A DNA stretch of 64,000 nt from positions 5,124 through 69,123 of the IMG/VR virus record IMGVR_UViG_3300013800_000007. One strand, 5' to 3'. The translations under genes and the position numbers were made by a program. The stretch is from a virus (Duplodnaviria > Caudoviricetes). Positions 1 through 64,000 of the stretch are shown piece after piece; position 1 is the first letter of the stretch; each line of letters opens with the position of its first letter. A model generated the notes under the pieces. That model searched no databases. It was not told where the DNA came from and was given only the letters and a program-made list of their open reading frames with translations.

Positions 1-461
1 CGTGCAGTCCCGAATTCAGACTCGACGGTCGCGCCCGGGTGCCGTTCGCGTGCCACCTCCTCCGCTTGCGACCGTGACGGGGCACGTGTGAAATATGAGA
101 CCTCGCCGCATTCGGACTCGACTTGCCACAGCGGCTCACCAATGCCCCAATATGCCCCGCCGCTATCATAGCCGCCGGAGTCAATGGTGACCGCTGAGAC
201 CGTGAGTCGTGGCGACTCGATGCCGCGCCCGTAATTGTTGCGCCTTCCCATTGGCGCGCCATATTTGCTCGAAACCTCAGGCAATTTAGACATTGGTCGC
301 CCTCCCTTTGCGCTTCAATATTTCGATTGCAAGCGACTGCAGGTCGCCCGGTTGCGTGTTGCTGACTAAGCGGTGCGCCGCTCGCCTAGCCTCAGGCATC
401 GGCCAATGCCGCGACCTCAGGCGATTGACGCAATCGTCAAAAACTACCTGCTGAATCAACG

Positions 462-635
462 TCACTTGCCCGCCTCCTCTAAATAGCGTTGTGCGTTTAC
501 AATCTCTGCCCGGACAATCGCCAACGGATGCGGCGTGAGGTTGGACTCGGCGTGCGGTGCCATTGCGAGCACGCGCAGGGCGTTTTCCAGATTGACGCGG
601 GCTTGCTCGATTGGCGAGCGCTGCAGTCCGCGCAT
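462..635 (-). CDS. hypothetical early protein
   Basis: ORF MRGLQRSPIEQ..., part of the leftward small-gene array; start moved to the internal ATG after the intergenic motif. Confidence 0.6.
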   Translation of the reverse strand: MRGLQRSPIEQARVNLENALRVLAMAPHAESNLTPHPLAIVRAEIVNAQRYLEEAGK

Positions 636-664
636 TGCGCCGCGTCGCGGTGTGTTGTTATTTG

Positions 665-874
665 TCAATGTCGACTCCATCGTTTGACGAGTCGGCGCAT
701 TTCGCGCCTATCGTGGTCGGTGTAGTGTGAGCCATGAGCCACGACTCCCGCCGCAACGCATGCCGGGTCAGATTGCGGCACCCATAGGCAAGGCGGATTG
801 ACCGCGCGAGTCTCGAATGTCGCTGAAATGTAAGCAGCTATAATGCCAGCTGCTAGCAACGCTGAACGCAACAC
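665..874 (-). CDS. hypothetical small exported/membrane protein
   Basis: GTG start after GAGGAG; hydrophobic N-terminus LRSALLAAGIIAAYISA. Confidence 0.55.
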   Translation of the reverse strand: MLRSALLAAGIIAAYISATFETRAVNPPCLWVPQSDPACVAAGVVAHGSHYTDHDRREMRRLVKRWSRH

Positions 875-885
875 GGGGCGACTCC

Positions 886-1350
886 TCAATCCAGATACTT
901 CGCCATGACATAGCCGCCGATATCGCCGCGAGTTTGCGTTCGGTCTGCTTCCCATCCGTCAAAGGACATGGGGCCGTCAGGCTCTAGCTGTAGCGTCTCG
1001 ACAATGTCGGAGTCGCCATAGCCATATGCGAGCATCGCGCGCCACACTTCGGCCTTGCGTCGCTCTTTGCTGCTGCATTCGCGGCGGAGGGTTGAATAGG
1101 TCCAGCCGAAAACCGCCAAGGCAGAGCGAATGCGTTTTTTCGCTTCGCTCAGTTGGCGCACGTAGAGTCCGACGCTCTTGCGTTCAATCATTACAGCGCC
1201 ATGAAATCCCACGGCCGAGTCGAGGTCTGTAATCTCGATTGCTTCGGCGTAGTCGCCGCAGTGCTTGATCCAAATCCCGCCGTGCTCTGCGTTGATATCG
1301 CCGAAATAGAGCCATTCGGAGTTGCCGCTATAATCCACATTCTTGCGCAT
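886..1350 (-). CDS. hypothetical early protein
   Basis: AGAGGAGG RBS before ATG; MRKNVDYSGNSEW... Confidence 0.75.
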   Translation of the reverse strand: MRKNVDYSGNSEWLYFGDINAEHGGIWIKHCGDYAEAIEITDLDSAVGFHGAVMIERKSVGLYVRQLSEAKKRIRSALAVFGWTYSTLRRECSSKERRKAEVWRAMLAYGYGDSDIVETLQLEPDGPMSFDGWEADRTQTRGDIGGYVMAKYLD

Positions 1351-1379
1351 TGTCTCGCCTCCTCTAGCGTTGTTTGTTG

Positions 1380-1511
1380 TCAGTGTTCGCGGCGCGATTT
1401 GTCGCGACGCTTGCGGTTGATGCGATCGGCGCGCCTGTTTTTGCTGCCATGGCGCGAGTCGACCATTGCGGCCCATGCATCGAATTCCGGGGAGTCGTGG
1501 TGGCGTTTCAT
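1380..1511 (-). CDS. hypothetical 43-aa protein (not in ORF track)
   Basis: MKRHHDSPEFDAWAAM...; ATG overlaps the upstream stop (ATGA); AAAGGA RBS. Confidence 0.5.
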   Translation of the reverse strand: MKRHHDSPEFDAWAAMVDSRHGSKNRRADRINRKRRDKSRREH

Positions 1512-1714
1512 GTTCCTAATCCTTTGTGCTTGCGGACCTCTTGAGTCGTGGCGAGTCGTGCCGCGACGAGTTTAAGCCATTTGCCGCGCAATGCGGGCGA
1601 CGACTCCGCCGCGCGTTGCGCTTCCTGCACAGTGCGACCGCTTGCCATTCGGCGAATATGCAAACCGGTAACGTCGTCGCGGAATAGCAGGCGATAGTAG
1701 ACGCGGGGAGGCAT
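1508..1714 (-). CDS. hypothetical early protein
   Basis: Start overlaps the stop of the upstream gene; translationally coupled array. Confidence 0.6.
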   Translation of the reverse strand: MPPRVYYRLLFRDDVTGLHIRRMASGRTVQEAQRAAESSPALRGKWLKLVAARLATTQEVRKHKGLGT

Positions 1715-2169
1715 TACACGCCCCTGCTACGTGGTAGGAATTCGCGCGCGCGTTTGATTGCTTCGCTAACCATGCCGGGGAAGTAGTGGCAAATGGTGCA
1801 ATTTTCGCCGTGCCTCGCGCGGAATGCCGTGCAATTGCGATTCATCGGATCGGAACTGCGATGCGCGGTCCAGAATTCCGAATAATCGTCGATCGAATAG
1901 ACCGACCCGCAAAGGGAGTCGCGGCCGATCTCCAACTCGTCGCCGTTGTCGTTAACGATGTAAACGACAACGCTAGAGTCGAAAGCGACATACTCGCCCG
2001 AGTCCAGCTTAGATTGCGTTTCGCCGTCTTCGTCGTCGCCGTCATATTGATAGCCGTGGTCGCGATCCAGCTCCAAAGCGACACGGAGTCGAGCTGTCCG
2101 GAATTCCCATACAGTGTCGCCGTAGAACGGCTTGCGGCGTGGCTTGCGTGCCGTGGTGGTCTTTGCCAT
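1714..2169 (-). CDS. hypothetical early protein
   Basis: AAAAGGA RBS; MAKTTTARKPRRKPFYGDTVWEF... Confidence 0.75.
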   Translation of the reverse strand: MAKTTTARKPRRKPFYGDTVWEFRTARLRVALELDRDHGYQYDGDDEDGETQSKLDSGEYVAFDSSVVVYIVNDNGDELEIGRDSLCGSVYSIDDYSEFWTAHRSSDPMNRNCTAFRARHGENCTICHYFPGMVSEAIKRAREFLPRSRGV

Positions 2170-2198
2170 TGTCGTGAGTCCTTTTGCGTGGTTGATTG

Positions 2199-2411
2199 TC
2201 AATCTGTTAGAAACGCTTTGCACATTGCTTCGCGAATGTCGGAGTCCTGCTCGTCCGCGAAGTGATAGCGCCACGCGATTGCCTGTTGACCAACTAGACG
2301 CTTGCCGCGCAATTGACGCTTGCCCGGTCGTTTACGCTCGACAACTAAACTTCCGTCCGGCAGTGCGCACGCGCTGTAGTGGCGGCCGTCATGTAGGATG
2401 CGAGTTTTCAT
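2199..2411 (-). CDS. hypothetical early protein
   Basis: AAAGGA RBS; MKTRILHDGRHY... Confidence 0.65.
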   Translation of the reverse strand: MKTRILHDGRHYSACALPDGSLVVERKRPGKRQLRGKRLVGQQAIAWRYHFADEQDSDIREAMCKAFLTD

Positions 2412-2447
2412 GGCGCGATTCCTTTGTGCGTTGTGGTCTGTCAATGC

Positions 2448-2831
2448 TTAGCGCGTGATCGTTTCGCTTAGCCAGGCGTGAAACACCTCGCCAATGTAGT
2501 CTTTAATATCGTTTCGATTGCGCCCCGTGACTCGAGTGTCAAAGCCGTTGAAAGCCGGGGTAACAATCACGTTGTGTTCGGTCCAACCATCATACATGCC
2601 GGACTCGTGCATATGGTGAAAGCACGTCCTAAAGATGAGTTTTTTCTCGGTCCATTCTACAAGCTTTGTTCCCGCGTCAAAGCCTGAGCCAGAAGGCGCG
2701 GATTCCATCAATTCAGCGATGGAGTCGGCGTGCTTGCCGCGCCATTCATAGTTGCTCGATGCTTCACAATTGCGGATTGCCTGTAAATAGTGAGCAAACC
2801 ACTGGAGTCGCGTTTTGATTTGCAGAGTCAT
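2448..2831 (-). CDS. hypothetical early protein
   Basis: AAAGGA RBS; MTLQIKTRLQWFAHY... Confidence 0.75.
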   Translation of the reverse strand: MTLQIKTRLQWFAHYLQAIRNCEASSNYEWRGKHADSIAELMESAPSGSGFDAGTKLVEWTEKKLIFRTCFHHMHESGMYDGWTEHNVIVTPAFNGFDTRVTGRNRNDIKDYIGEVFHAWLSETITR

Positions 2832-2947
2832 TGATCGAGTCCTTTGTTGAGGTTGCGGCAAACGCAGAACGAAAACTGAATGCGGCCAATTCGCAGGAAG
2901 CGGATTCCGCCAACCTTGAAGGCGCGAATGCTGAATGATGCGAGCAT
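2828..2947 (-). CDS. hypothetical 39-aa protein, first gene of the early array (not in ORF track)
   Basis: MLASFSIRAFKVGGIRFLRIGRIQFSFCV...; AAGGA RBS; stop overlaps the next ATG. Confidence 0.55.
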   Translation of the reverse strand: MLASFSIRAFKVGGIRFLRIGRIQFSFCVCRNLNKGLDQ

Positions 2948-3722
2948 GTTCGAGTCCTTGTTCGCTTGCTTGTGAATTCACAATGCACCGAGTCGCATTG
3001 CCAAACAATTAAAATATTGACGGTCAACCACATTATTCGCGACACCTCACAATGCGCGCTGCGACACTCTATAAATAGGCCACGCCGAGACTGCAGTCTG
3101 CACGTCTCGCATTAGTCGACTCCCGACTCGGCGTGTTGTTGGGCGTTCCAGCCCGATATTTAACCGATTGGTTGAACGTTGACTCGGTCAACTATTGCCG
3201 TTGTAATTGCAAGTCGACGCGGCGGCGTGGTCGACTCTCATGTTGTATTGTCAATTTTCCATAAGATTTATTCTGCGAATGGAAAGGAGCAAGCATTTCA
3301 AGCGTTTGCCTCCTCCCCCGCATTGTCGCGTGTCAGTGCATGGTCATACCAATAACCAATGTCGAGATCAGCCAATAATGTGGCGCGAATGTCGCATATG
3401 TTGGTACGCATCATGCTCTATTGCACTGACTGCAGCGCATAAAGCACGCACAAACATAGAACAAGCTGGCAACTGGGGCGTCGAGGGACCCGTTGCGTCT
3501 ACAGTTGTAGCTGCGGCCGGCCGGGGGAGTTGCATATGCGAAAGGAAACCTCGGCGTCGGCGCAACGAATGCATTTGCTAGTCGCGGGCGCACACGCCGA
3601 TAGAAATTTCAGGGGGTAGGGGGGACCCGCCGCGGATCCTGCCTCCTCCTCCGCACCCCCCCTCCCCTTCGCGAAAAGGGGACCCAAAAGGATCCCCCGG
3701 CAGAGGAGGTTGACCCAGTACC

Positions 3723-3751
3723 TTGACAGTTCACAACGTCGCAGGTATAGA
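3723..3751 (+). promoter_or_regulatory. sigma70-type promoter, start of the rightward operon
   Basis: TTGACA-17 bp-TATAGA. Confidence 0.75.
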
Positions 3752-3817
3752 TGTTGAGAGTTGTCAATCTGTTCTCGAGTGCCCATATCGCTCTCGAGGT
3801 CTGTGGTGAGGTTCCTG

Positions 3818-5014
3818 GTGGCGGATTTGTTGTTCTGGCTCTGGCCGATTTGTAGCGTACTCGCCACGGCGGCTTATGCTGTCTGGCAGCGCCGGCAGAT
3901 GGAGCTCATCAAGGACAAGCTGGCTGACTGCGAGAGGAAGGCCGCCGCCAACGAGTATTGGTGCGGCGCTGTCGACCGACGAGCAAGCGACCTGGCCGAC
4001 GTCGCCAAGGTCGCCGCCGAGCGCATTGCCGCCCTCCAATCCGCAGAACCGACCGGCCACGTGTCGCGCGCCGAGCTCCACAACGAGATCTCGCACATCG
4101 CCCAGGCCATCCTTTCGCTGAACAAGCGAACAATCGACATCGGCAAGAGCGCCGACGAGGCTAACGCCGCAGCCATGAAGTACGTCGGTGACGCAGTAAA
4201 CAATTTGTCTGAGGATATCAGCGGAGTTGACGATAAGGTGGAGGCCGCGCTCAAGGCTGCTCACACCGAGTCGTCTCTTTTTCGTGCCGCCGTTGCCGCC
4301 ATTGAGACCGAGACGACGAGGATCTCAAATGTTGTGATCGGCGCCTCCAAGAACGCCAAGGTGGCGGTCGACTTGCTCGAAAGCATGAATGTGGAGCTTC
4401 GGGAAACGTCTGCCCGGGCAACCACCCTGCGGACAGACCTTGATCGCTTCACGAGTGACTCTACGACGGCCTACCAGGCCCTCGAGAGCGACCTGGGTGA
4501 GATCGTGGCGGCTGTGCAATCCTACGGCGACCGCCTGGATGGCACGGACGTCAGCATTGGGACCCTGTTCTCGCGAGCCGACGAGGCGCTCAGCAACTCC
4601 GCCAGGGTTGCCACACGCATGTCTGATCTTACCAGCCGGGTTGATGGGATCGACGAGACCATAGACGAGCTGGACGACTGCCTCACCAAGCTCGAGGATC
4701 AAACCGTTCCCGACGTCGCTGAGCAGGTTGGCGCGCTACGTCAGAGGCAGAACGACCTCCTGAACGCCACCATGACCGACTACGCATCAATTTCAAAGCG
4801 GGTCGACCAGCTTTCCACTCACCCAAGCGGCTCCGATCTTCGTGAGCTCATCCTGTCGTCGAACCAGCAGCAGGCAGCCGAGACCAATCGTATCGCCATG
4901 GAGCTGGGGAAGGCCATAGATCAAATGGCGGCCCGCCTCGCCAAGCTGTCCAAGGCGCGGACACGCTTCGTTCAGCGTCCAGCGCCTCGCCAAATTGAGG
5001 CAGCTGCCCAGTGA
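3818..5014 (+). CDS. membrane-anchored long coiled-coil protein
   Basis: N-terminal hydrophobic segment LLFWLWPICSVLATAAYAVW followed by ~350 aa of heptad-like sequence; GTG start after GAGG. Confidence 0.75.
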   Translation: MADLLFWLWPICSVLATAAYAVWQRRQMELIKDKLADCERKAAANEYWCGAVDRRASDLADVAKVAAERIAALQSAEPTGHVSRAELHNEISHIAQAILSLNKRTIDIGKSADEANAAAMKYVGDAVNNLSEDISGVDDKVEAALKAAHTESSLFRAAVAAIETETTRISNVVIGASKNAKVAVDLLESMNVELRETSARATTLRTDLDRFTSDSTTAYQALESDLGEIVAAVQSYGDRLDGTDVSIGTLFSRADEALSNSARVATRMSDLTSRVDGIDETIDELDDCLTKLEDQTVPDVAEQVGALRQRQNDLLNATMTDYASISKRVDQLSTHPSGSDLRELILSSNQQQAAETNRIAMELGKAIDQMAARLAKLSKARTRFVQRPAPRQIEAAAQ

Positions 5015-5226
5015 GCGTCCTGCTTGAATCCTGGCGGCTAGGAATAGTCGCCTCGGTCAAAAACCGCATCATGCCGCGTGTCGCCGCCAAGTGGCTCGCA
5101 TCGTTCCACACGCCGGCCATTCGGTGCTGTGGGGAGGAAGTCCCGGAAATACTCGAGGTCGGCGCCCGCGACTTTCGAGCCCAGTGCTCGCGTTGCAAAA
5201 AGACCTGGAGGGTTATCGATGTCTGA
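5011..5226 (+). CDS. small Cys-rich (putative Zn-binding) protein
   Basis: CC and CSRC motifs; overlaps both neighbours. Confidence 0.55.
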   Translation: MSVLLESWRLGIVASVKNRIMPRVAAKWLASFHTPAIRCCGEEVPEILEVGARDFRAQCSRCKKTWRVIDV

Positions 5227-5485
5227 GAAAACGAATTGTGACTCCTGTGCTCTCGGTCTGCCGGTCGGCGGACTCAACGTCTGCACCATCAAGCCGAAAG
5301 GTAAGCGCGTGATGAAACTCACCGACGTCTGCTCCAAGTGGAAGCACTGGAGCGAGATGTTCAAGGTTGTGCCGATCAGGGCGAAGCCCATCAAGCGCAA
5401 GCCCAGCGCGCCGAAGACCGTCAAGGAGCGGTCGCAGTTCAATCGCAACTACGTCCCGCACACCAAGAAAAAGGTGGCGGCATGA
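5219..5485 (+). CDS. small Cys-rich basic protein
   Basis: CDSC...CT...CSKW motifs. Confidence 0.6.
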   Translation: MSEKTNCDSCALGLPVGGLNVCTIKPKGKRVMKLTDVCSKWKHWSEMFKVVPIRAKPIKRKPSAPKTVKERSQFNRNYVPHTKKKVAA

Positions 5486-5518
5486 GCACGTCTTACGAGC
5501 CATTGATGAGGCCGCGCC

Positions 5519-5794
5519 ATGACCGCTGATGCTCAGCGCCTTTTTCACCCAGACGGCTTTTATTCCAATGTGAAATGGGTCGTGCGTATTCGTGACTGGA
5601 ACAAGGTAAGGCCAGATCGTTACGTGTGTGACGATGGCATACTGGTCGAGCTCAGAAGTTACAGTAACGCCGCCACATTGGCTGCCAAGGTCGCGGGCCG
5701 CATCGGCTACTTGCGGGTCTCTGATCCGCTATCAACTGACGATGTTCAGGTCATCGCCCGCGTCCCCTATCGCCGCGGAGAGACACGCCCATGA
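5519..5794 (+). CDS. hypothetical protein
   Basis: In-operon ORF whose stop overlaps the next start. Confidence 0.55.
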   Translation: MTADAQRLFHPDGFYSNVKWVVRIRDWNKVRPDRYVCDDGILVELRSYSNAATLAAKVAGRIGYLRVSDPLSTDDVQVIARVPYRRGETRP

Positions 5795-6132
5795 GCAGCT
5801 CCGAAGTAGACGAGCTTGTGAATGCCGTCCTGAGCGTCCAACGCGCCACCGCCCGCCTGGGCTGGCGCTTTTGCTCGACCATCACGATGACCGTCGAGTT
5901 CTCCAGCGTCAACGACCTGTACAGCGCCGTAAAGCTGCTGATGGACAAGCTGGACAACCCAGCGCGCAGCCACCACCCTTTCAGCCACCCGCACCCCGAC
6001 GTCATCGCCGTCGACCTGCTTGGCGCCACTCTGCACCTCAAGTGCAATCAGCGCTACGCCTCGAAGGACGGCCCCTACACGGCCGCCGAAGCCGTCAAAG
6101 AGACCGTCAAGCGCCTCAAGGAGGGCAAATGA
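5791..6132 (+). CDS. hypothetical protein
   Basis: GGAG RBS, phage-typical codon usage, ATGA overlaps. Confidence 0.7.
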   Translation: MSSSEVDELVNAVLSVQRATARLGWRFCSTITMTVEFSSVNDLYSAVKLLMDKLDNPARSHHPFSHPHPDVIAVDLLGATLHLKCNQRYASKDGPYTAAEAVKETVKRLKEGK

Positions 6133-6668
6133 GCGAATACTCCGGCCTCGCCCGCAAGCTCCTCCGCTACCGCACGGCGCTCGACGACAGCGGCCAGAAG
6201 GTCGCCAAGCTCGAGTTCTCGAACACGGGCAAGGAGGACCTCGAAAAGCTCCTACTCGTCGGCTCCTCCGCGGAGGAGATCTGCGACTTTTTCATTCTCG
6301 ACCTCGACGACTACAACAAGCTGATCGCCAAGGGCGGACAGGTTCACGAGTTGCATAGATACGCAACAGCACAATATAAGCGGATGCTGCGCGAGAACCA
6401 GCTCAAGTTATCCGGCAAGAACGCCGCCATGGGCCGCCACCTTGGCGCCCACGGCCTCGGACAGCCGAAGGACCCAGCGCCGAAGATCGACGAGAACAAG
6501 CCGACTCCGGTCATTGGCACGATGCCAGACTACGGCGCCTCCAGCGACGAGTGGAAAGAGAAGTTCGTTCCTAAGAACCGCGACACCGGCGACACGATCG
6601 AGAAGATCCGCCGCATGACCGGCGCCAACAAAGAAGATCCACCACCATCGCCAGACGAGGACGTCTGA
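6129..6668 (+). CDS. terS: terminase small subunit (putative)
   Basis: Directly upstream of TerL; HTH-like segment then KRMLRENQLKLSGKNAAMGRHLGAHGLGQ, resembling the TerS motif N-x-x-M-x-x-x-L-G-x-x-x-L-G-Q; true start at 6129 inside the track ORF 5628..6668. Confidence 0.7.
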   Translation: MSEYSGLARKLLRYRTALDDSGQKVAKLEFSNTGKEDLEKLLLVGSSAEEICDFFILDLDDYNKLIAKGGQVHELHRYATAQYKRMLRENQLKLSGKNAAMGRHLGAHGLGQPKDPAPKIDENKPTPVIGTMPDYGASSDEWKEKFVPKNRDTGDTIEKIRRMTGANKEDPPPSPDEDV

Positions 6669-9286
6669 TGTCGAATCAGAAGTCGGTCTGGACACCGCAA
6701 CCGATTCAAGCGGCATATGTACACTGTCCAATTTCCGAAATATTTTTCGGTGGCGCTCGGGGTGGGGGAAAGCTTCAACCGAAGGATTCCGCGGTGCTAA
6801 CGCCGACCGGTTGGAAGGCGATTGGCGATTTGCGTGTTGGCTCTAAACTCTGCGCTGTTGATGGAACGGTTTGTGAAGTCATAGGCTTATACCCGCAGGG
6901 CATTGTTGACATCTATCGCGTCACCCTGAGCGATGGTGGATCATGCGAGGCAGGCCTTGAACATCGTTGGCTTGCTTGGGAAGCCAATAAGTCGAGAAAG
7001 AAGGGCGGTGCACGAACATCTGGCTCATCCTCGGCGCGAGTCTACACGACGGCCGACATTTTGAAGCGCATGAATCGCAAGGCTGGGAAGACCTGTCGAT
7101 TTGCTATTCCGACGAACGCTCCGGTGAGCCTCAATGTGGCTGGAGGAAAGCGCCCAAGGTCAGTTGATCCTTACTTTCTTGGCCTACTGCTTGGAGATGG
7201 CAGTTTTTCAGGCGAGGCAATCACCGTTACGTCAATGGACAAGGAGATTGGCGACTACCTGTTCCTGATTGCCTCGAATGATTGCGTAAAGAGCGATAGG
7301 GAGGGGAATCAGGCGTCGTCGTATAGGTTCATCGGCGATTTCAGATCTAACCTTGACCGTCAACTAAAAGCGATGAAGCTGCGCGGTCTTCACTCCGAAG
7401 ACAAGTTTATTCCCAGAGAATACCTTTGGGGCCCAGTAGACGTTCGCCGGGCGTTATTGCAGGGCTTGATGGATACGGACGGGTGGGTCGAAAGCAAACG
7501 CGCCGCCTATTACTGCACTACATCAAAGAAGCTGTGCGATGATGTTGTGTTTTTGGCTCGCTCCATGGGGTGCGTAACTAACGTCTCGAACAAGCTTCCA
7601 ACCTACACGTATAAGGGAGAAAAGCGTGAAGGCATGCCAGCCTTCACGATCAGAATTAAATCCCCCGAGCCTGAGACTCTTTTTAGGCTTAGCCGAAAAC
7701 GTTCGGTGGCTCGCGGAATTGAGCATCAAACTGATGGTAGATGGATCGAAAAGATTGAATTTTCTCGCAAGGCCGACTCGGTGTGTATTGCGGTTAGCCA
7801 CCCATCGTCATTGTATATTACGGATGATTTTATAGTTACTCACAACACCGACGGGTCGCTTGGGAGAGCTCTGATACGAGCCCTCCAGTACAAAGAGCAC
7901 TTCAAGGCCTATTTCGTTCGCCGGGAGCTGGTCCAGCTTGAGCCGGCGATTGCCCGTTCCAAGGAGATATTCTCTCCGTTTGGGACCTATCTGGACCACA
8001 AAAAGACCTGGATTTTCAGGGATGGCGGCGTCCTATCCTTCCGGTACATCGAGCGCGATTCAGACGCTGAAAAGTTCCAAGGTGCCTCAGCAACGGACCT
8101 TTACATCGAGGAAATCGGCAACTTCCCCGACCTGGATCCGCTCCTCAAGCTCAAGGGCATCTTGCGATCGACGGCCGGCGTGCCCACTTGTTGGTGTGCG
8201 ACCGGTAACCCCGGCGGCCCCGCCCACACCTTGGTCAAACGCCGCTGGATAGACCCGGCGCCGAACGGTTTTGAGGTCATTCGGGAGACCGACCCCCTTA
8301 CCGGCCTGTCCAACGAGCGGATCTACATTCCCTCGCGGGTCACGGACAACATGCTTCTGATGAAGAATGATCCGGGCTATATCGCCCGGCTTGCGCAGAC
8401 GGGCTCAGAGGCTCTAGTTCGCGCCTGGCTATCCGGTTCATTCGACATCATCGACGGCGCTTTCTTTTCCAACTTCTCTGTCCAACGCAACGTCCTCCGA
8501 CCCACCGAACTCCCAGCGCATTGGATGCGGTTCTGCGCCGGCGACTGGGGCTCCTACTTCCCCTTCTACTTCATCTGGTTCGCGCATGCGTCCGAGGATT
8601 GGGTTCACCCCGACGGTCAGTTCATCCCCAAGGGCGCATTGATCGGATTCCGCGAGTGGTACGGCTCTCAAAACCACAACAACAAAGGCCTCAAAATGAC
8701 GGCCGAGGATGTTGGTTTGGAGTTGGGCCGCATCGAAAAGGAAATCTCTCGAGTCGTCAGGCGAAACGATCCGGATGACACGATTGCCTACCGCGTCATG
8801 GATCCGAAGGCATTCTCTCAGGATGGTGGGCCGAGCATCGCGGAGCGGTTTGCTCGAGCAACAGACGGAAAGATCCTATTCAGGCGCGCAGACAACAAGC
8901 GCGTCGGCAAAGACGGCGCAATGGGTGGTTGGGACATGATGCGTCAACGCATCGACGGAGCGGAGTTGCAAGGTGACGGCGTCAAGGTCCCCTCTCTGTA
9001 TTTTTTCGACACTTGCGTGGATGTTATCCGCACAATTCCGGCTCTCCAGCACGATCCGGACAATCCAGAAGATCTTATGGGGTCCGAAGACCACCCGGCC
9101 GACGCCATTCGATACGGCATCATGTCGAGACCGTTTTTCGAGGACGCGCCCAGGAAGCGCCCGACGCCAGAGGAACTCCGCAAATCAATCATGAAGGGCG
9201 ATCTCGCGAACGCGACCCTCATGGAGTTGTTCAACGAAAGAGAGCGCAGCATGAAAGGCTCGCGCTCCAGGAATTGGAGAGTATAA
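6668..9286 (+). CDS. terL: terminase large subunit, interrupted by an intein
   Basis: Walker A GGARGGGK|T split by the insert; Walker B LYIEE; ATGNPGG coupling motif; C-terminal RNase H-like nuclease (GDWG...EDHPADAIRY). Confidence 0.95.
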   Translation: MSNQKSVWTPQPIQAAYVHCPISEIFFGGARGGGKLQPKDSAVLTPTGWKAIGDLRVGSKLCAVDGTVCEVIGLYPQGIVDIYRVTLSDGGSCEAGLEHRWLAWEANKSRKKGGARTSGSSSARVYTTADILKRMNRKAGKTCRFAIPTNAPVSLNVAGGKRPRSVDPYFLGLLLGDGSFSGEAITVTSMDKEIGDYLFLIASNDCVKSDREGNQASSYRFIGDFRSNLDRQLKAMKLRGLHSEDKFIPREYLWGPVDVRRALLQGLMDTDGWVESKRAAYYCTTSKKLCDDVVFLARSMGCVTNVSNKLPTYTYKGEKREGMPAFTIRIKSPEPETLFRLSRKRSVARGIEHQTDGRWIEKIEFSRKADSVCIAVSHPSSLYITDDFIVTHNTDGSLGRALIRALQYKEHFKAYFVRRELVQLEPAIARSKEIFSPFGTYLDHKKTWIFRDGGVLSFRYIERDSDAEKFQGASATDLYIEEIGNFPDLDPLLKLKGILRSTAGVPTCWCATGNPGGPAHTLVKRRWIDPAPNGFEVIRETDPLTGLSNERIYIPSRVTDNMLLMKNDPGYIARLAQTGSEALVRAWLSGSFDIIDGAFFSNFSVQRNVLRPTELPAHWMRFCAGDWGSYFPFYFIWFAHASEDWVHPDGQFIPKGALIGFREWYGSQNHNNKGLKMTAEDVGLELGRIEKEISRVVRRNDPDDTIAYRVMDPKAFSQDGGPSIAERFARATDGKILFRRADNKRVGKDGAMGGWDMMRQRIDGAELQGDGVKVPSLYFFDTCVDVIRTIPALQHDPDNPEDLMGSEDHPADAIRYGIMSRPFFEDAPRKRPTPEELRKSIMKGDLANATLMELFNERERSMKGSRSRNWRV
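6773..7846 (+). mobile_element. intein (358 aa) with LAGLIDADG homing endonuclease
   Basis: Begins LQPKDSAVLTPTGW and ends FIVTHN, followed by Thr+1; LAGLIDADG motifs LGLLLGDGS and LQGLMDTDG. Confidence 0.93.
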
Positions 9287-41845: not shown

Positions 41846-42420
41846 TATTTCTTCCCCTTCTTCTTCGCGGGCGCCTTGGCTTTGCTTTTCTTCCCGCCCG
41901 TTTTCTTTCGGCGACCGGTCGGCTTTAGATGGCTTACGTCGTGCAGTCCGGCCTCAATGCGAAGTGCAGTTACTGCCACCGCAACAGCATCCGCTTCGTT
42001 GTCGTCCATGACTGCAAACCCAAGGCGACTCACAGCTTCGATTATTTGCTCTTTTTTCGCTCCGCCCTTGCAGACGCACGCCTTTATCGTGTTGACTGGA
42101 ATGCCAACTGGCTCAATGCCGTTTCGGTGTGCGGCCATTTGAATGATAGCTCGCGCCCCACAGTGAAGCTCCGTTGCCCTCGATGAGGCAAACGTGGCCG
42201 CGTGAACAAATTCAAACACCAGGCCAGTAATCTTGTGAGCATCAATTTTCGCCTGAATAAATCTGTCGATGTGCAGCCATCGCTCGAAATCTTGTGGATG
42301 CGAATGGACTTTATCCACATTCCACACGCCGATCTCTATCGGTTGCCCGTCGTACATCACGCACCAGCCTAGCTTCGTGCCAATGTCGATCGCGAGCAGG
42401 CGACTGGTGTCACTTGGCAT
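41845..42420 (-). CDS. RuvC-like Holliday junction resolvase
   Basis: LLAIDIG..LGWC, VFE, DNEADAVAV. Confidence 0.88.
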   Translation of the reverse strand: MPSDTSRLLAIDIGTKLGWCVMYDGQPIEIGVWNVDKVHSHPQDFERWLHIDRFIQAKIDAHKITGLVFEFVHAATFASSRATELHCGARAIIQMAAHRNGIEPVGIPVNTIKACVCKGGAKKEQIIEAVSRLGFAVMDDNEADAVAVAVTALRIEAGLHDVSHLKPTGRRKKTGGKKSKAKAPAKKKGKK

Positions 42421-43078
42421 TTGCTATGGCATCCTCGATGTCGAGCTGCGCACCCTTGGAGAAGCGCTTTTTTGCTGGCTTTTTCTTTGGTGGCGCGACG
42501 ATCGGTGGAGATGGTGTTGTTGCGACGATGCCGGCAGGGGTGATCCACTCACCAAGGTCGCCGCCTATGCAGCGCCAACCCTTGCGTTGCCGGCGAGCGA
42601 ATAGCTCGATGCGTTCGACATCAGGCCAGCGCTTATCAATGAGATCCTGGAAGCGCTCCGGCTTCGCGGAATGACGCTTCTCGCGCGCACCCTCGAACAC
42701 TGTCGTCCACTCTAGCGGCTTGCGAGCCTCGAACTTGCCGCGGGTCCCGATGAGAACGATCTCACCGTTGTTCCGACTCCACCGCCCGTACGCGACATTC
42801 GGCTTTTTCCATACGAGACATGACTTGTAGGAGAAGCCCCAGTGAGCGAGTAGAGTCATGGCCTGCGCCAAGTGCGGCACTGTGGACCATAGCATCATGC
42901 AGGCGTTTTTGCCGGCCAAGTCCTTAATTGTCGGATGAAGATCGAGCAGATCTTGCTCACTCATGCATTCGTACTTCTGGACGCGGCCACGACCCTTGTC
43001 AGAGTACGTCTTGATTGCCCATGGAACATCAGCAACCACGATCCGCGGCGGAGACTTTACTCGTCTTTTCCCTGACAC
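42410..43078 (-). CDS. MT-A70 family adenine methyltransferase
   Basis: DVPW, LW..., WGF.YK...W.K, HSAKP, IELFAR. Confidence 0.85.
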   Translation of the reverse strand: MSGKRRVKSPPRIVVADVPWAIKTYSDKGRGRVQKYECMSEQDLLDLHPTIKDLAGKNACMMLWSTVPHLAQAMTLLAHWGFSYKSCLVWKKPNVAYGRWSRNNGEIVLIGTRGKFEARKPLEWTTVFEGAREKRHSAKPERFQDLIDKRWPDVERIELFARRQRKGWRCIGGDLGEWITPAGIVATTPSPPIVAPPKKKPAKKRFSKGAQLDIEDAIANAK

Positions 43079-61640: not shown

Positions 61641-61916
61641 TCACTTCGCTTTCCCCTTCATCTTGTGCCACCGCCGAATGATCATGTTCTTGGTGATCTT
61701 CTTGCCGGTGGTCTCTGATAGGTCTGCCGCGATCATCGAGGTCGATCGCAGCCGGTAGTTCTTGCGGATGTAGGCCTCCATCTCCTCCGTCCACTCGAGT
61801 CCGGGCGGGGGAGCGAAGCGTTGGCGAACGCGATGCACGACTTTGCGGATGTCCTTGCCGCGATAGATCGCGCTGCCGTGTGGTCCGCGCACAACGATGA
61901 TGTAGGGCGCTGTCAT
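61641..61916 (-). CDS. protein with GcrA-like N-terminal HTH domain
   Basis: WTEEMEAYIRKNY..STSMIAADL..ITKNMIIRRWHKM matches GcrA WTDERV..L..S.SQIA..L..VTRNAVIGKVHRL. Confidence 0.75.
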   Translation of the reverse strand: MTAPYIIVVRGPHGSAIYRGKDIRKVVHRVRQRFAPPPGLEWTEEMEAYIRKNYRLRSTSMIAADLSETTGKKITKNMIIRRWHKMKGKAK

Positions 61917-62451: not shown

Positions 62452-62804
62452 GCGGCGGCCTCGCGGAGCTTGGCGATGCCGGCGTCGGTGATGGAGAGCT
62501 CGGTGGTTGCTCTGCCTCTCGTCTTGACGGCGCTCTCCGTGATAAACCCACTCGCAAGCAGCTCAGCAACGGCGGGCGCTATCTTGGAGTTAGCACAGCC
62601 GATCCACCCGCGAATTTCAGAGCGTCTGCAATTTCCACCCTCAAGCAGACGAAGAATCTTGGTGGGGGTGACATCCCTTGATTCGGCTCGACGTCGTGCC
62701 TTGCGCTTTACCGCCTCATCCTTGAGGGCGCGTGCCACCGCCAGCAGCAATGCATCAACGAACGTGGATGAGAGGGGGAGGGTGCGAAGTCTTTGTCCGT
62801 TCAT
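62448..62804 (-). CDS. winged-helix protein paralogous to the primase C-terminal domain
   Basis: RRSEIRGWIGCANSKIAPAVAELLASG...KTRGRATTEL. Confidence 0.8.
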   Translation of the reverse strand: MNGQRLRTLPLSSTFVDALLLAVARALKDEAVKRKARRRAESRDVTPTKILRLLEGGNCRRSEIRGWIGCANSKIAPAVAELLASGFITESAVKTRGRATTELSITDAGIAKLREAAA

Positions 62805-63217
62805 ACCGCTGCCCCTCCGTCAATGCCCGCAGCGGCGCGGCGGAGTAGGGTGGCAATGTTCTGGATGCCGTCCTTGTTGACGCCGGGCATCATGAAGCAG
62901 GCCGGCCGGCGCGTCGTACTTCTCGGCTCGAGCTTGACGGCGCCCAGTTCGACTGCCAGTCGCAGTGCGGGCCGGGCCATAGCTGAGCTACACCCGATGA
63001 GGCGGCGCGCCTCAGATATCGGCTGGCCGGGATTCTTGAGGACCTCGTGAGCCAGTTTCAGGATCATGCCGGCCTCGACCGCAGCGCGGCCGGATATGCC
63101 CTCCTGGCGCGCTATCTCACGAAAGTGATTGTAGTCTGAACGCTTACTAGAAATTTCCAGCCCGATCGCGCCGGCGATCATGTCGAACCCACTCTTAGAT
63201 TTCTTCACTTTTTCCAT
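62801..63217 (-). CDS. winged-helix DNA-binding protein
   Basis: ISEARRLIGCSSAMARPALRLAVELGAV; GGAG RBS. Confidence 0.65.
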   Translation of the reverse strand: MEKVKKSKSGFDMIAGAIGLEISSKRSDYNHFREIARQEGISGRAAVEAGMILKLAHEVLKNPGQPISEARRLIGCSSAMARPALRLAVELGAVKLEPRSTTRRPACFMMPGVNKDGIQNIATLLRRAAAGIDGGAAV

Positions 63218-63388
63218 TGTGACATCTCCGTTTGATGCCGACGAATCGGCGACCCATTGACAACTCACCATGTCAATGGTCGAGCGTCATGGTCAAATCA
63301 CAAGACTGTGATTGCGACAAGGTAGAAACAGCCGGAAAGAGGTGAACTCAAGGGCGCAACAAGGATGCAACTTTGAGGGCTTCTGACG

Positions 63389-63564
63389 TATAAACCAACT
63401 CAAGATGCGAGCTATTTGCTTATAAACCAACTCAAACAGCGAGCTATTTGCTTATAAACCAACTCAAACAGCGAGCCATTTGCTTATAAACCAACTCAAA
63501 CAGCGAGCCATTTGCTTACAACACAACTCAAACAGCGAGCCATTTGCTTATAAACCAACTCAAA
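63389..63564 (+). repeat. 5.5 tandem copies of a 32-bp unit (iteron-like)
   Basis: TATAAACCAACTCAAACAGCGAGC(T/C)ATTTGCT at 63389, 63421, 63453, 63485, 63517, partial at 63549; no spacers. Confidence 0.95.
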
Positions 63565-64000
63565 AAATAAGCTCTTGGGTGGTTGATGTTGCCACTCAGA
63601 ATGCTGACGCCTTACTCAAGATGCTAATTCGTTAAAAAATTACTGTACTCAAACCCTCGATAGAAGTTCGATCGACGTACTAGTCATGTAGACAAGCGAA
63701 CAACCACAACCGACAACTATACTGTTAACCTTTTCGACAACTCAATATGTCAGTTTTTGAGGATCAGGTTGCATATATACAGCGTTCAATTCAATTTCTG
63801 GTTGACCGGAAAATGTCGTTCTGATGCCGTTCTGAGAGCTTAGAACGTCGAAAACTCCAATGAAATCAGGCGTTTGACCTTAAATACTACTGACGGGGGG
63901 GGGCACCCTTTCGCAGACACAGATCCATTCCCTGTTCTGTTCGACTATATAAGCACAAAATACTTATTCTTATTCTTATTATATATAAGGGGGGGGGAGG
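63565..64000. other. AT-rich non-coding region with G-runs (candidate origin or genome end)
   Basis: No ORF in the track; AT-rich relative to the genome; TTATTC repeats and poly-G near the end. Confidence 0.5.

Follow-up and report, generated by a model that had tools for sequence, protein, structure and literature searches.

What keeps a five-letter word at high density throughout a phage operon when most of its copies lie inside genes? The question is raised by the left end of a 64,000-nucleotide stretch (hereafter the window) of a tailed-phage genome, IMG/VR record IMGVR_UViG_3300013800_000007, where GAGTC and its complement GACTC (jointly GA[GC]TC) form a dense island. The window comprises bases 5124–69123 of the 69,123-base record, which we designate G000 (with L001 for its bases 1–9000) and which is rated 100% complete by CheckV, has a G+C content of 58% and is without end repeats. 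Our analysis shows that the enrichment is real, lies at the DNA level, is strongly selected, is confined to one operon and is common to a small clade of phages. The word is one half of the GANTC family, the other half being GA[AT]TC; GANTC is the methylation site of alphaproteobacteria, whose methylase CcrM accepts any base at N.

The GA[GC]TC island covers a single leftward operon

The original prediction, made without database searches, had counted about 37 GAGTC/GACTC pentamers in window 1–3240, with about 22 instances of the hexamer GAGTCG/CGACTC, followed by a sparse 3 kb. These counts are exact: there are 23 GAGTC and 14 GACTC (37 pentamers), and 14 GAGTCG and 8 CGACTC (22 hexamers), with the first site of the window at 19 and the last at 3233, whereas window 3241–6480 holds 4 pentamers and 1 hexamer. 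Dinucleotide-preserving shuffles of 1–3240 yield 5.0±2.1 pentamers (maximum 12 in 1000 shuffles; z=14.9) and 2.0±1.4 hexamers. The predominance of GAGTC on the + strand between 800 and 3000 also holds, with 21 of 25 sites in this orientation. The further statement that the array is confined to the left early region needed amendment: it is indeed restricted to one operon, but it begins 4.1 kb outside the window, beyond its left edge, and the label "early" derives from the gene content and position of this region.

In its full extent, the island spans genome ~1000–8360, with 65 sites in ~7.5 kb, and covers the whole of a leftward operon of about 21 small genes (genome ~1000–8100, window up to 2947), which we term the arm. 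The density of sites is 8.7/kb in the island as against 1.85/kb elsewhere in the genome, and from the control region at the right end of the arm it declines leftward through 12, 11, 9, 10, 9, 7, 5, 2 and 0 sites/kb. When all pentamers were scanned, GAGTC came out as the top pentamer of the region (45 occurrences, where the remaining genome predicts 5.5), and an unbiased scan likewise placed GAGTC/GACTC first among the locally enriched pentamers of the genome.

The sites are spread through the operon without evident order. Most of them (53 of 65) lie wholly within open reading frames, where they occupy all three frames, and the non-coding DNA of the arm is densest (15 sites/kb versus 7.9/kb in coding DNA); several overlap ribosome-binding regions (AAGGACTC). 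Their spacing fits random placement (mean 114 bp) with no clustering, excess of short distances or helical period, and the search for periodicity returned nothing beyond the codon period. The flanks carry little information, the commonest heptamer being GGAGTCG. A pair of 16-mers, GAGTCGTGGCGA[GC]TCG at window 204 and 1543, suggests a composite motif, of which there are two copies only.

Selection shapes codons and proteins around the word

Within the coding sequence of the arm, GA[GC]TC occurs 54 times, as against 20.8±3.5 when synonymous codons are re-dealt and 11.5±3.1 when codon order is shuffled. Shuffling had been named in the original prediction as a check, and the enrichment survives the dinucleotide-preserving, synonymous and codon-order versions alike. 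Elsewhere in the genome, the synonymous test gives z=-0.2 for the structural genes, z=1.8 for the replication genes and z=0.4 for the small genes at the right end. Among the coding-strand pentamers of the arm compared with synonymous shuffles, GACTC ranks first (z=8.9) and GAGTC is also raised (z=4.4). Amino acid sequence is affected along with codon choice: Asp-Ser dipeptides number 24 in the arm proteins versus 8.7 expected, and 22 of these 24 are encoded as GAC-TCN, as against 43–44% in other genes. Similarly, Glu-Ser is written GAG-TCN in 12 of 14 arm cases, and Arg-Leu as CGA-CTC, with its rare CGA codon, in 9 of 18 arm cases versus 8% elsewhere. Selection bends both codons and protein sequence to hold these sites.

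Both orientations of the word are enriched over their nulls, by 2.9- and 2.2-fold. The excess of GACTC on the coding strand is mild (38:16 in G000 and 46:28 in the related lineage L045, with the null alone predicting 1.85:1), and a further relative, L025, has a strand ratio of 18:16, that is, no bias. The enrichment of both orientations, together with the lack of strand bias in L025, indicates that the word is read on double-stranded DNA.

Related lineages renew the density of sites

A search of related phages, also proposed beforehand, recovered the island in three related lineages from other samples:

L025: terminase 90% identical to that of G000; 32 sites in 2.7 kb
L045: neighbouring protein 51% identical, arm syntenic at 60–85% amino acid identity; 80 sites in 9.3 kb
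L047: near-identical to L025 in the control region; 9 sites in the first kb

In the L045 arm, 74 coding sites stand against 30.3±4.1 in synonymous shuffles (z=10.8), and the gradient is as in G000. The L025 arm carries 11.9 sites/kb, with 10–12/kb in segments and replacement genes that are non-homologous to G000. Across 4.7 kb of orthologous coding DNA of G000 and L045 (74% nucleotide identity), 19–20 of the 43 G000 sites keep their place, where 13.5 are expected; the remainder, more than half, turn over, yet both lineages stand at 8–9 sites/kb. This turnover of sites with the density held in both lineages implies that the density is renewed and not merely inherited. None of the 36 listed differences in window 1–900 (best-supported rows) falls in a site, where 2.2 are expected, a result too weak to count.

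Beyond this clade, no island of any pentamer was found among the relatives by large terminase subunit in IMG/VR (41–49% identity; L002–L023) or in the complete genomes G001–G004, all of which are too distant for testing its conservation; nor does L024, a 46% relative of one arm protein, have an island.

The arm is a mosaic of small genes next to a divergent control region

The 21 arm genes, all on the minus strand, were called from open frames and ribosome-binding sites. The control region, the arm genes of the window and the one arm gene with a known family are as follows:

2948..3760: divergent control region, with the arm on one side and the rightward packaging and structural module on the other
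2828..2947, minus strand: arm gene 1, 39 amino acids; GACTC in its ribosome-binding region (AAGGACTCGAAC-ATG); L045 homologue 81% identical
2448..2831, minus strand: arm gene, 127 amino acids, no family
2199..2411, minus strand: arm gene, 70 amino acids; module TTGACA-N17-GAATC-N6-ATG in front
1714..2169, minus strand: arm gene, 151 amino acids, no family; non-homologous, equally site-rich replacement genes in L025 and L045
1508..1714, minus strand: arm gene, 68 amino acids; 91% identical in L025 and 84% in L045
1380..1511, minus strand: arm gene, 43 amino acids
886..1350, minus strand: arm gene, 154 amino acids, no family; cassette exchanged between lineages
665..874, minus strand: arm gene, 69 amino acids; weak membrane-protein PHROG match
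462..680, minus strand: arm gene, 72 amino acids
286..465, minus strand: arm gene, 59 amino acids
1..293, minus strand: start of a gene of 232 amino acids (in full L001:4718-5416), extending past the left window edge; phrog_1915, function unknown
L001:3133-3618: ArdA-like anti-restriction gene, the only arm gene with a known family

Comparison of the arm proteins with Pfam and PHROG revealed no function beyond the ArdA-like protein and the one weak membrane-protein match, and no candidate reader of the sites; two other arm proteins match PHROGs of unknown function. As judged from its gene content and position, the arm is probably an early host-takeover operon of accessory genes. Metagenome contigs from four other runs bridge window 886–1456, 1478–1712 and 2247–2977 with different or no sequence, which points to the arm being a mosaic of exchangeable gene cassettes.

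Within the control region, the GANTC positions 2990 and 3125 are kept in all lineages, with N varying at 3125 (GACTC in G000 and L045, GATTC in L025), while the site at 3181, which lies within the palindrome GTTGAC-TCG-GTCAAC, is shared by G000, L025 and L047 and missing from L045. Non-coding DNA of ~110 nucleotides (window ~3527–3640) forms a conserved block, highly alike in L025, L045 and L047, and is followed by a strong hairpin (~3650–3712) and then by a conserved promoter-like TTGACA-N17-TATAGA (~3727–3757) ahead of the rightward genes. An Rfam search of the control region returned nothing near threshold, and a promoter and terminator scan of window 1–4000 gave no signal above shuffles.

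Several arm genes are preceded by a repeated module that consists of TTGACA, 16–17 ACAAC-rich bases, a GANTC overlapping an AAGGA ribosome-binding site, 5–6 bases and ATG. We located it at the following places:

TTGACA-N16/17-GANTC-N5/6-ATG module: window 2202 and 2444; L001:2771 and 3651; L045:4012, 7984 and 8389; L025:2342

The module has GAATC, GATTC or GACTC at orthologous places, so that its central base is free. It is also compatible with a ribosome-binding site, and it holds only a minority of the island sites.

The two halves of the GANTC family behave differently

Expressed as ratios to the dinucleotide expectation, the two halves of the family compare as follows in the three arms:

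G000 arm: GA[GC]TC 4.9; GA[AT]TC 0.43
L045 arm: GA[GC]TC 3.9; GA[AT]TC 0.67
L025 arm: GA[GC]TC 7.8; GA[AT]TC 0.93

The GA[AT]TC ratios of the G000 and L045 arms correspond to the depleted baseline of the rest of these genomes; that of L025 is above its baseline of 0.52 but not above expectation. In the G000 arm, GA[AT]TC even falls below the synonymous null (7 versus 14.3), and in the rest of G000 the GANTC words are only mildly depleted, at 0.76 and 0.48 of expectation. At one coding position, two other lineages differ in the central base, with GGATTCG in X3 and GGAGTCG in X5.

The wider relatives purge the family. G001–G004 deplete GA[GC]TC and GA[AT]TC alike, to 0.15–0.35 of expectation, and in ~11 kb each L009 has 1 GANTC site and L012 none; a GANTC purge is also shown by about half of pelagiphage genomes (PMC9516812). 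In the closest relative without the array, L026 (a JGI contig of 21.5 kb with a terminase 64% identical outside the intein), GA[AT]TC occurs once where 62 are expected and GA[GC]TC 26 times where 48 are expected (0.54), a pattern consistent with its host restricting GAWTC specifically (W, A or T; S, G or C). As L026 treats the two halves differently, this phage group is subject to factors that distinguish S from W, and we conjecture that such discriminating pressure could account for the use of GA[GC]TC only in the present clade.

Homologues of the 232-residue arm protein mark GANTC-rich blocks in other phages. Two short metagenome contigs with such homologues are L053, with 28 GA[AT]TC in 2.3 kb (1–2274), and L058, with 42 GANTC in 4.2 kb (600–4205); a non-coding stretch of the latter (760–1230) holds tandem GGATTCCAG repeats. 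Blocks of small genes adjacent to the terminase genes are ~5-fold richer in GANTC than the remainder of the analysed stretch in Erythrobacter phage vB_EliS-L02 and Citromicrobium phage vB_CbaS-RXM, both of them cultured phages of Sphingomonadales. The most over-represented hexamer of these blocks is GTTAAC/GGTTAA (22 versus 1.1 in L084:8000-17783 of vB_CbaS-RXM and 64 versus 2.2 in L085:4000-23211 of vB_EliS-L02), which resembles the TTAAC half-sites of CtrA type. Ten loci in bacterial genomes also have a homologue of the 232-residue protein: two from Rhodobacterales (Shimia and Roseicyclus) stand at 9–11 GANTC/kb, 2.3 times expectation, and the Bradyrhizobium locus and the seven non-alphaproteobacterial loci show no GANTC excess, a comparison of small numbers in which the binning of metagenome-assembled genomes can err. 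A description of such islands was not found in the literature that we searched, although such a paper may still exist.

Other words also differ between the arm and the rest of G000: CAAT/ATTG is ~2-fold and CGCG ~1.7-fold higher in the arm, and GATC is ~0.55-fold, its frequency outside the arm (7.8/kb, about twice the composition expectation) being about twice that inside. A second, weaker enriched word, GATTGC/CGATTG, is found at 2–3 times the dinucleotide expectation in the arms (L001:900-8400, L045:600-9900 and L025:1-2700) and in L053, mostly as GCAATC on the coding strand and often encoding Ala-Ile.

A proposed methylation-linked mark and its alternatives

The explanation that we favour, and hold tentatively, is a methylation-linked mark of the GANTC family on one operon, read on duplex DNA, with GcrA–RNA polymerase as the leading but unproven reader. 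Under this explanation, selection would keep dense recognition sites across one leftward accessory operon adjoining the packaging genes; in an alphaproteobacterial host these would be N6-adenine methylation sites of the CcrM type, and they would be read by a methylation-sensitive factor, with GcrA in its complex with RNA polymerase as the first candidate. The mark would apply to the operon as a whole, and not to individual promoters. On entry of a fully methylated genome, the reader would be attracted to the operon or retained there; once the DNA had been copied without being methylated, the mark would be lost, and expression of the operon would presumably change with it.

GcrA's best site is TGATTCG. 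In Caulobacter its sequence context is YGAKTCK (PMC4647560), and the GcrA/CcrM-dependent sigma-70 promoters of Caulobacter crescentus and Brevundimonas subvibrioides have one or two sites each (PMC4647560, PMC3667746, PMC7987155). At the GcrA-activated promoters of Brevundimonas, a C before GANTC is the only flank preference reported (PMC7987155), and a prophage operon of Brevundimonas depends on GcrA as well. Phage phiCbK is reported to have a GcrA homologue. In the phage arms, C precedes GANTC in 67–85% of cases as against 46–67% elsewhere (p≈0.03–0.04 in each of three lineages). The original proposal that the region is built to be read by the host CcrM/GcrA system is partly supported: besides this flank and the membership of the word in the GANTC family, the variation of N at some conserved positions speaks for it, as do the GANTC purge in the wider relatives and the GANTC islands of the distant contigs, of the two cultured sphingomonad phages and of the two Rhodobacterales loci.

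Several observations weigh against it. YGAKTCK is not preferred (19% in G000, 26% in L045 and 29% in L025, with ~25% expected). The sites are mainly intragenic and not at fixed promoter positions. The GA[AT]TC half is methylated by CcrM just as well and contains the GcrA site TGATTCG, yet it shows no enrichment in the G000, L025 and L045 arms, and no exchange from S to W is seen at the coding sites of G000 and L045; that this clade enriches GA[GC]TC only is left unexplained by a GANTC mark. The phage genome contains neither GcrA (PF07750) nor a CcrM-type methylase (PF01555), its 65 sites are few compared with the thousands on a host chromosome, and the block of small genes at its right end, which is equally possibly early, is without enrichment. 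Hints of an alphaproteobacterial host, among them the GANTC purge of the relatives, are also sparse. Two prophage scans of genomes, one with a portal alignment, recovered no close phage kin and no homologue of an arm protein above 50% identity; there are no tRNA genes in the phage that could point to a host; and the best protein matches are mixed among phages of different hosts. Thus, the ArdA-like gene has its best full-length matches in Citromicrobium, Erythrobacter and Caulobacter phages and the helicase in Roseobacter phages, while other genes match Xylella, Xanthomonas and Bordetella phages.

Two phage proteins were considered in connection with the sites:

42410..43078, minus strand: MT-A70 methylase (PF05063, E 7e-19), the only recognisable DNA methylase of the phage
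61641..61916, minus strand: protein of 91 amino acids, no Pfam family, weak HNH PHROG match (E 0.0014)

The prokaryotic MT-A70 members described methylate GATC (PMC7556043), which leaves the MT-A70 protein unsupported as the writer of GA[GC]TC. It is absent from G001–G003, a distant version is present in G004, which has no island, and an Atlas search for it returned viral clusters only. The second protein had been linked to the array in the original prediction, but nothing beyond its weak HNH match emerged and nothing ties it to the sites.

Among the alternatives, an unlikely but serious one is a true GAGTC/GACTC-specific factor, unrelated to CcrM, that coats, silences, protects or nicks the operon; this could be a DNA-binding protein of phage or host, or a type IIS or nicking module. 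MlyI, PleI and N.BstNBI are GAGTC-specific type IIS or nicking enzymes. The features of the clade that a GANTC mark leaves unexplained are those that such a factor would account for, namely GA[GC]TC being the only half enriched in three lineages with GA[AT]TC at the depleted baseline of the genome, and the lack of S-to-W exchange between G000 and L045; the separation of the two halves in L026 (1 versus 62 for GA[AT]TC, a ratio of 0.54 for GA[GC]TC) points the same way. Set against these are the variation of N at several conserved positions and the islands of other phages, which use W or any N. Moreover, there is no candidate protein, the arm proteins being largely without families, and the sole methylase comes from a family whose described members take GATC (PMC7556043).

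It is rather improbable that the island is a sponge or decoy, many copies of which would, after replication, soak up a host protein that binds GANTC (CcrM, GcrA or a restriction enzyme) and so keep it from the host chromosome or from other parts of the phage genome. Dense sites with no order in their positions are what a sponge would show, the same block holds the ArdA-like anti-restriction gene, and the GANTC purge in the wider relatives marks the word as costly in these hosts. However, a decoy needs neither a single operon nor a gradient from the promoter end, and offering a nuclease more places to cut would be to the phage's disadvantage.

A still smaller probability attaches to the view that the island has no function and reflects composition, whether that of a separate gene pool or one produced by a local bias in mutation. 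The arm is pieced together from exchanged cassettes and, as noted above, other words differ in it, from CAAT/ATTG, CGCG and GATC to GATTGC; nevertheless, GA[GC]TC is far above all of them, and its density, at 4–8 times expectation, is beyond a mere absence of purge. This density is also kept through more than 50% turnover of sites and in unrelated replacement genes, at the cost of rare codons and altered proteins, and we know of no mutational process that writes a pentamer in both orientations. Least credible of all is a word read in RNA, with GACUC/GAGUC in the arm transcripts as the target of a ribonuclease or RNA-binding protein, analogous to T4 RegB and its cleavage of early mRNAs at GGAG: the mild coding-strand excess of GACTC and the sites in ribosome-binding regions would suit it, but the null ratio is already 1.85:1, the two orientations are enriched about alike, L025 is without strand excess, and four sites in the divergent control region have the opposite orientation.

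The methylation-linked mark thus remains our preferred explanation, and it can be generalized into a proposal that we consider doubtful, though far from idle. Phages of CcrM-bearing bacteria might place an operon-wide "epigenetic label" in the coding DNA of their first-expressed genes: methylation that the DNA acquired in its last host cell, and that replication removes, would recruit or release a reader such as GcrA–RNA polymerase, parental and progeny DNA would thereby be told apart and the switch away from early genes timed, and each lineage would adjust the central base to the restriction pressure that it meets locally. If the sites are methylated and read, a whole phage operon would be regulated via words embedded in its coding DNA, which reshape its codons and proteins, and the CcrM/GcrA epigenetic system would extend from single host promoters to phage takeover programmes. 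The mark would also offer a reason for the purge of GANTC from the rest of the relatives' genomes, and a sequence signature by which the genes that act first in uncultured phages, and perhaps also the class of their hosts, could be recognized. These ideas are testable in culture, since vB_EliS-L02 and vB_CbaS-RXM carry similar blocks.

Other features of the genome

To the right of the divergent control region, the rightward packaging and structural module includes the large terminase and portal genes, and a leftward block of replication and small genes runs from the other end of the window:

6668-9286, rightward: large terminase, 872 amino acids
9287-11686, rightward: portal
~63300 down to 33730, leftward: replication and small genes

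The terminase has an intein-like insert (PF05204 Hom_end and PF14528 LAGLIDADG_3 in its homologues); relatives without this insert are ~490 amino acids long and align to its outer parts only. Six tandem 32-bp repeats (TATAAACCAACTCAAACAGCGAGCCATTTGCT) at window 63389–63580, directly right of the first leftward gene (62801–63271), look like replication-origin iterons or a regulator-binding array. Both contig ends have runs of G or C (L001:1-40; window 63890–64000), and a ~22-nucleotide inverted repeat has one copy, CTGCGCGAAAGGGTGCCCCCCCCC, at the left end and its complement near the right end; it may represent real termini or an assembly artefact. All runs containing the phage are metagenomes, from wastewater, aquatic, freshwater and sludge samples, with short-read contigs, and no RNA run is listed among them; a megablast search found no close DNA relatives among deposited phages.

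Comparison with known systems

The island shares with the GcrA/CcrM promoters of Caulobacter and Brevundimonas a word of the GANTC family and, as in Brevundimonas, a modest preference for C before it. Unlike those promoters, with their one or two promoter sites, it runs at ~9 sites/kb through the coding DNA of a 7.5-kb operon, has no YGAKTCK preference and no GA[AT]TC enrichment, and the methylation that its host would confer is our inference.

Clusters of the Dam site GATC serve as methylation switches, as in the sequestration of oriC by SeqA and in the seven hexamers of the phage P1 pac site. As in these clusters, many copies of a short adenine-methylation word are brought together, and the post-replication state could tell old from new DNA. 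However, the Dam clusters are non-coding, extend over 0.15–0.25 kb and have set spacing, whereas the island extends over 7.5 kb, is mostly coding and has random spacing.

With the GANTC-depleted pelagiphages (PMC9516812), the phage has in common the word itself, and its wider relatives show the same purge. In contrast to restriction-word avoidance, the island is a 4–8-fold excess (4.9-, 3.9- and 7.8-fold in the three arms) located in one operon. Chi-type hotspots are short over-represented words with one active orientation that protect entering linear DNA. The island is like them in that copies of a short word are crowded close to an end of the phage genome, but differs from them in that both orientations are enriched and the density falls towards the genome end.

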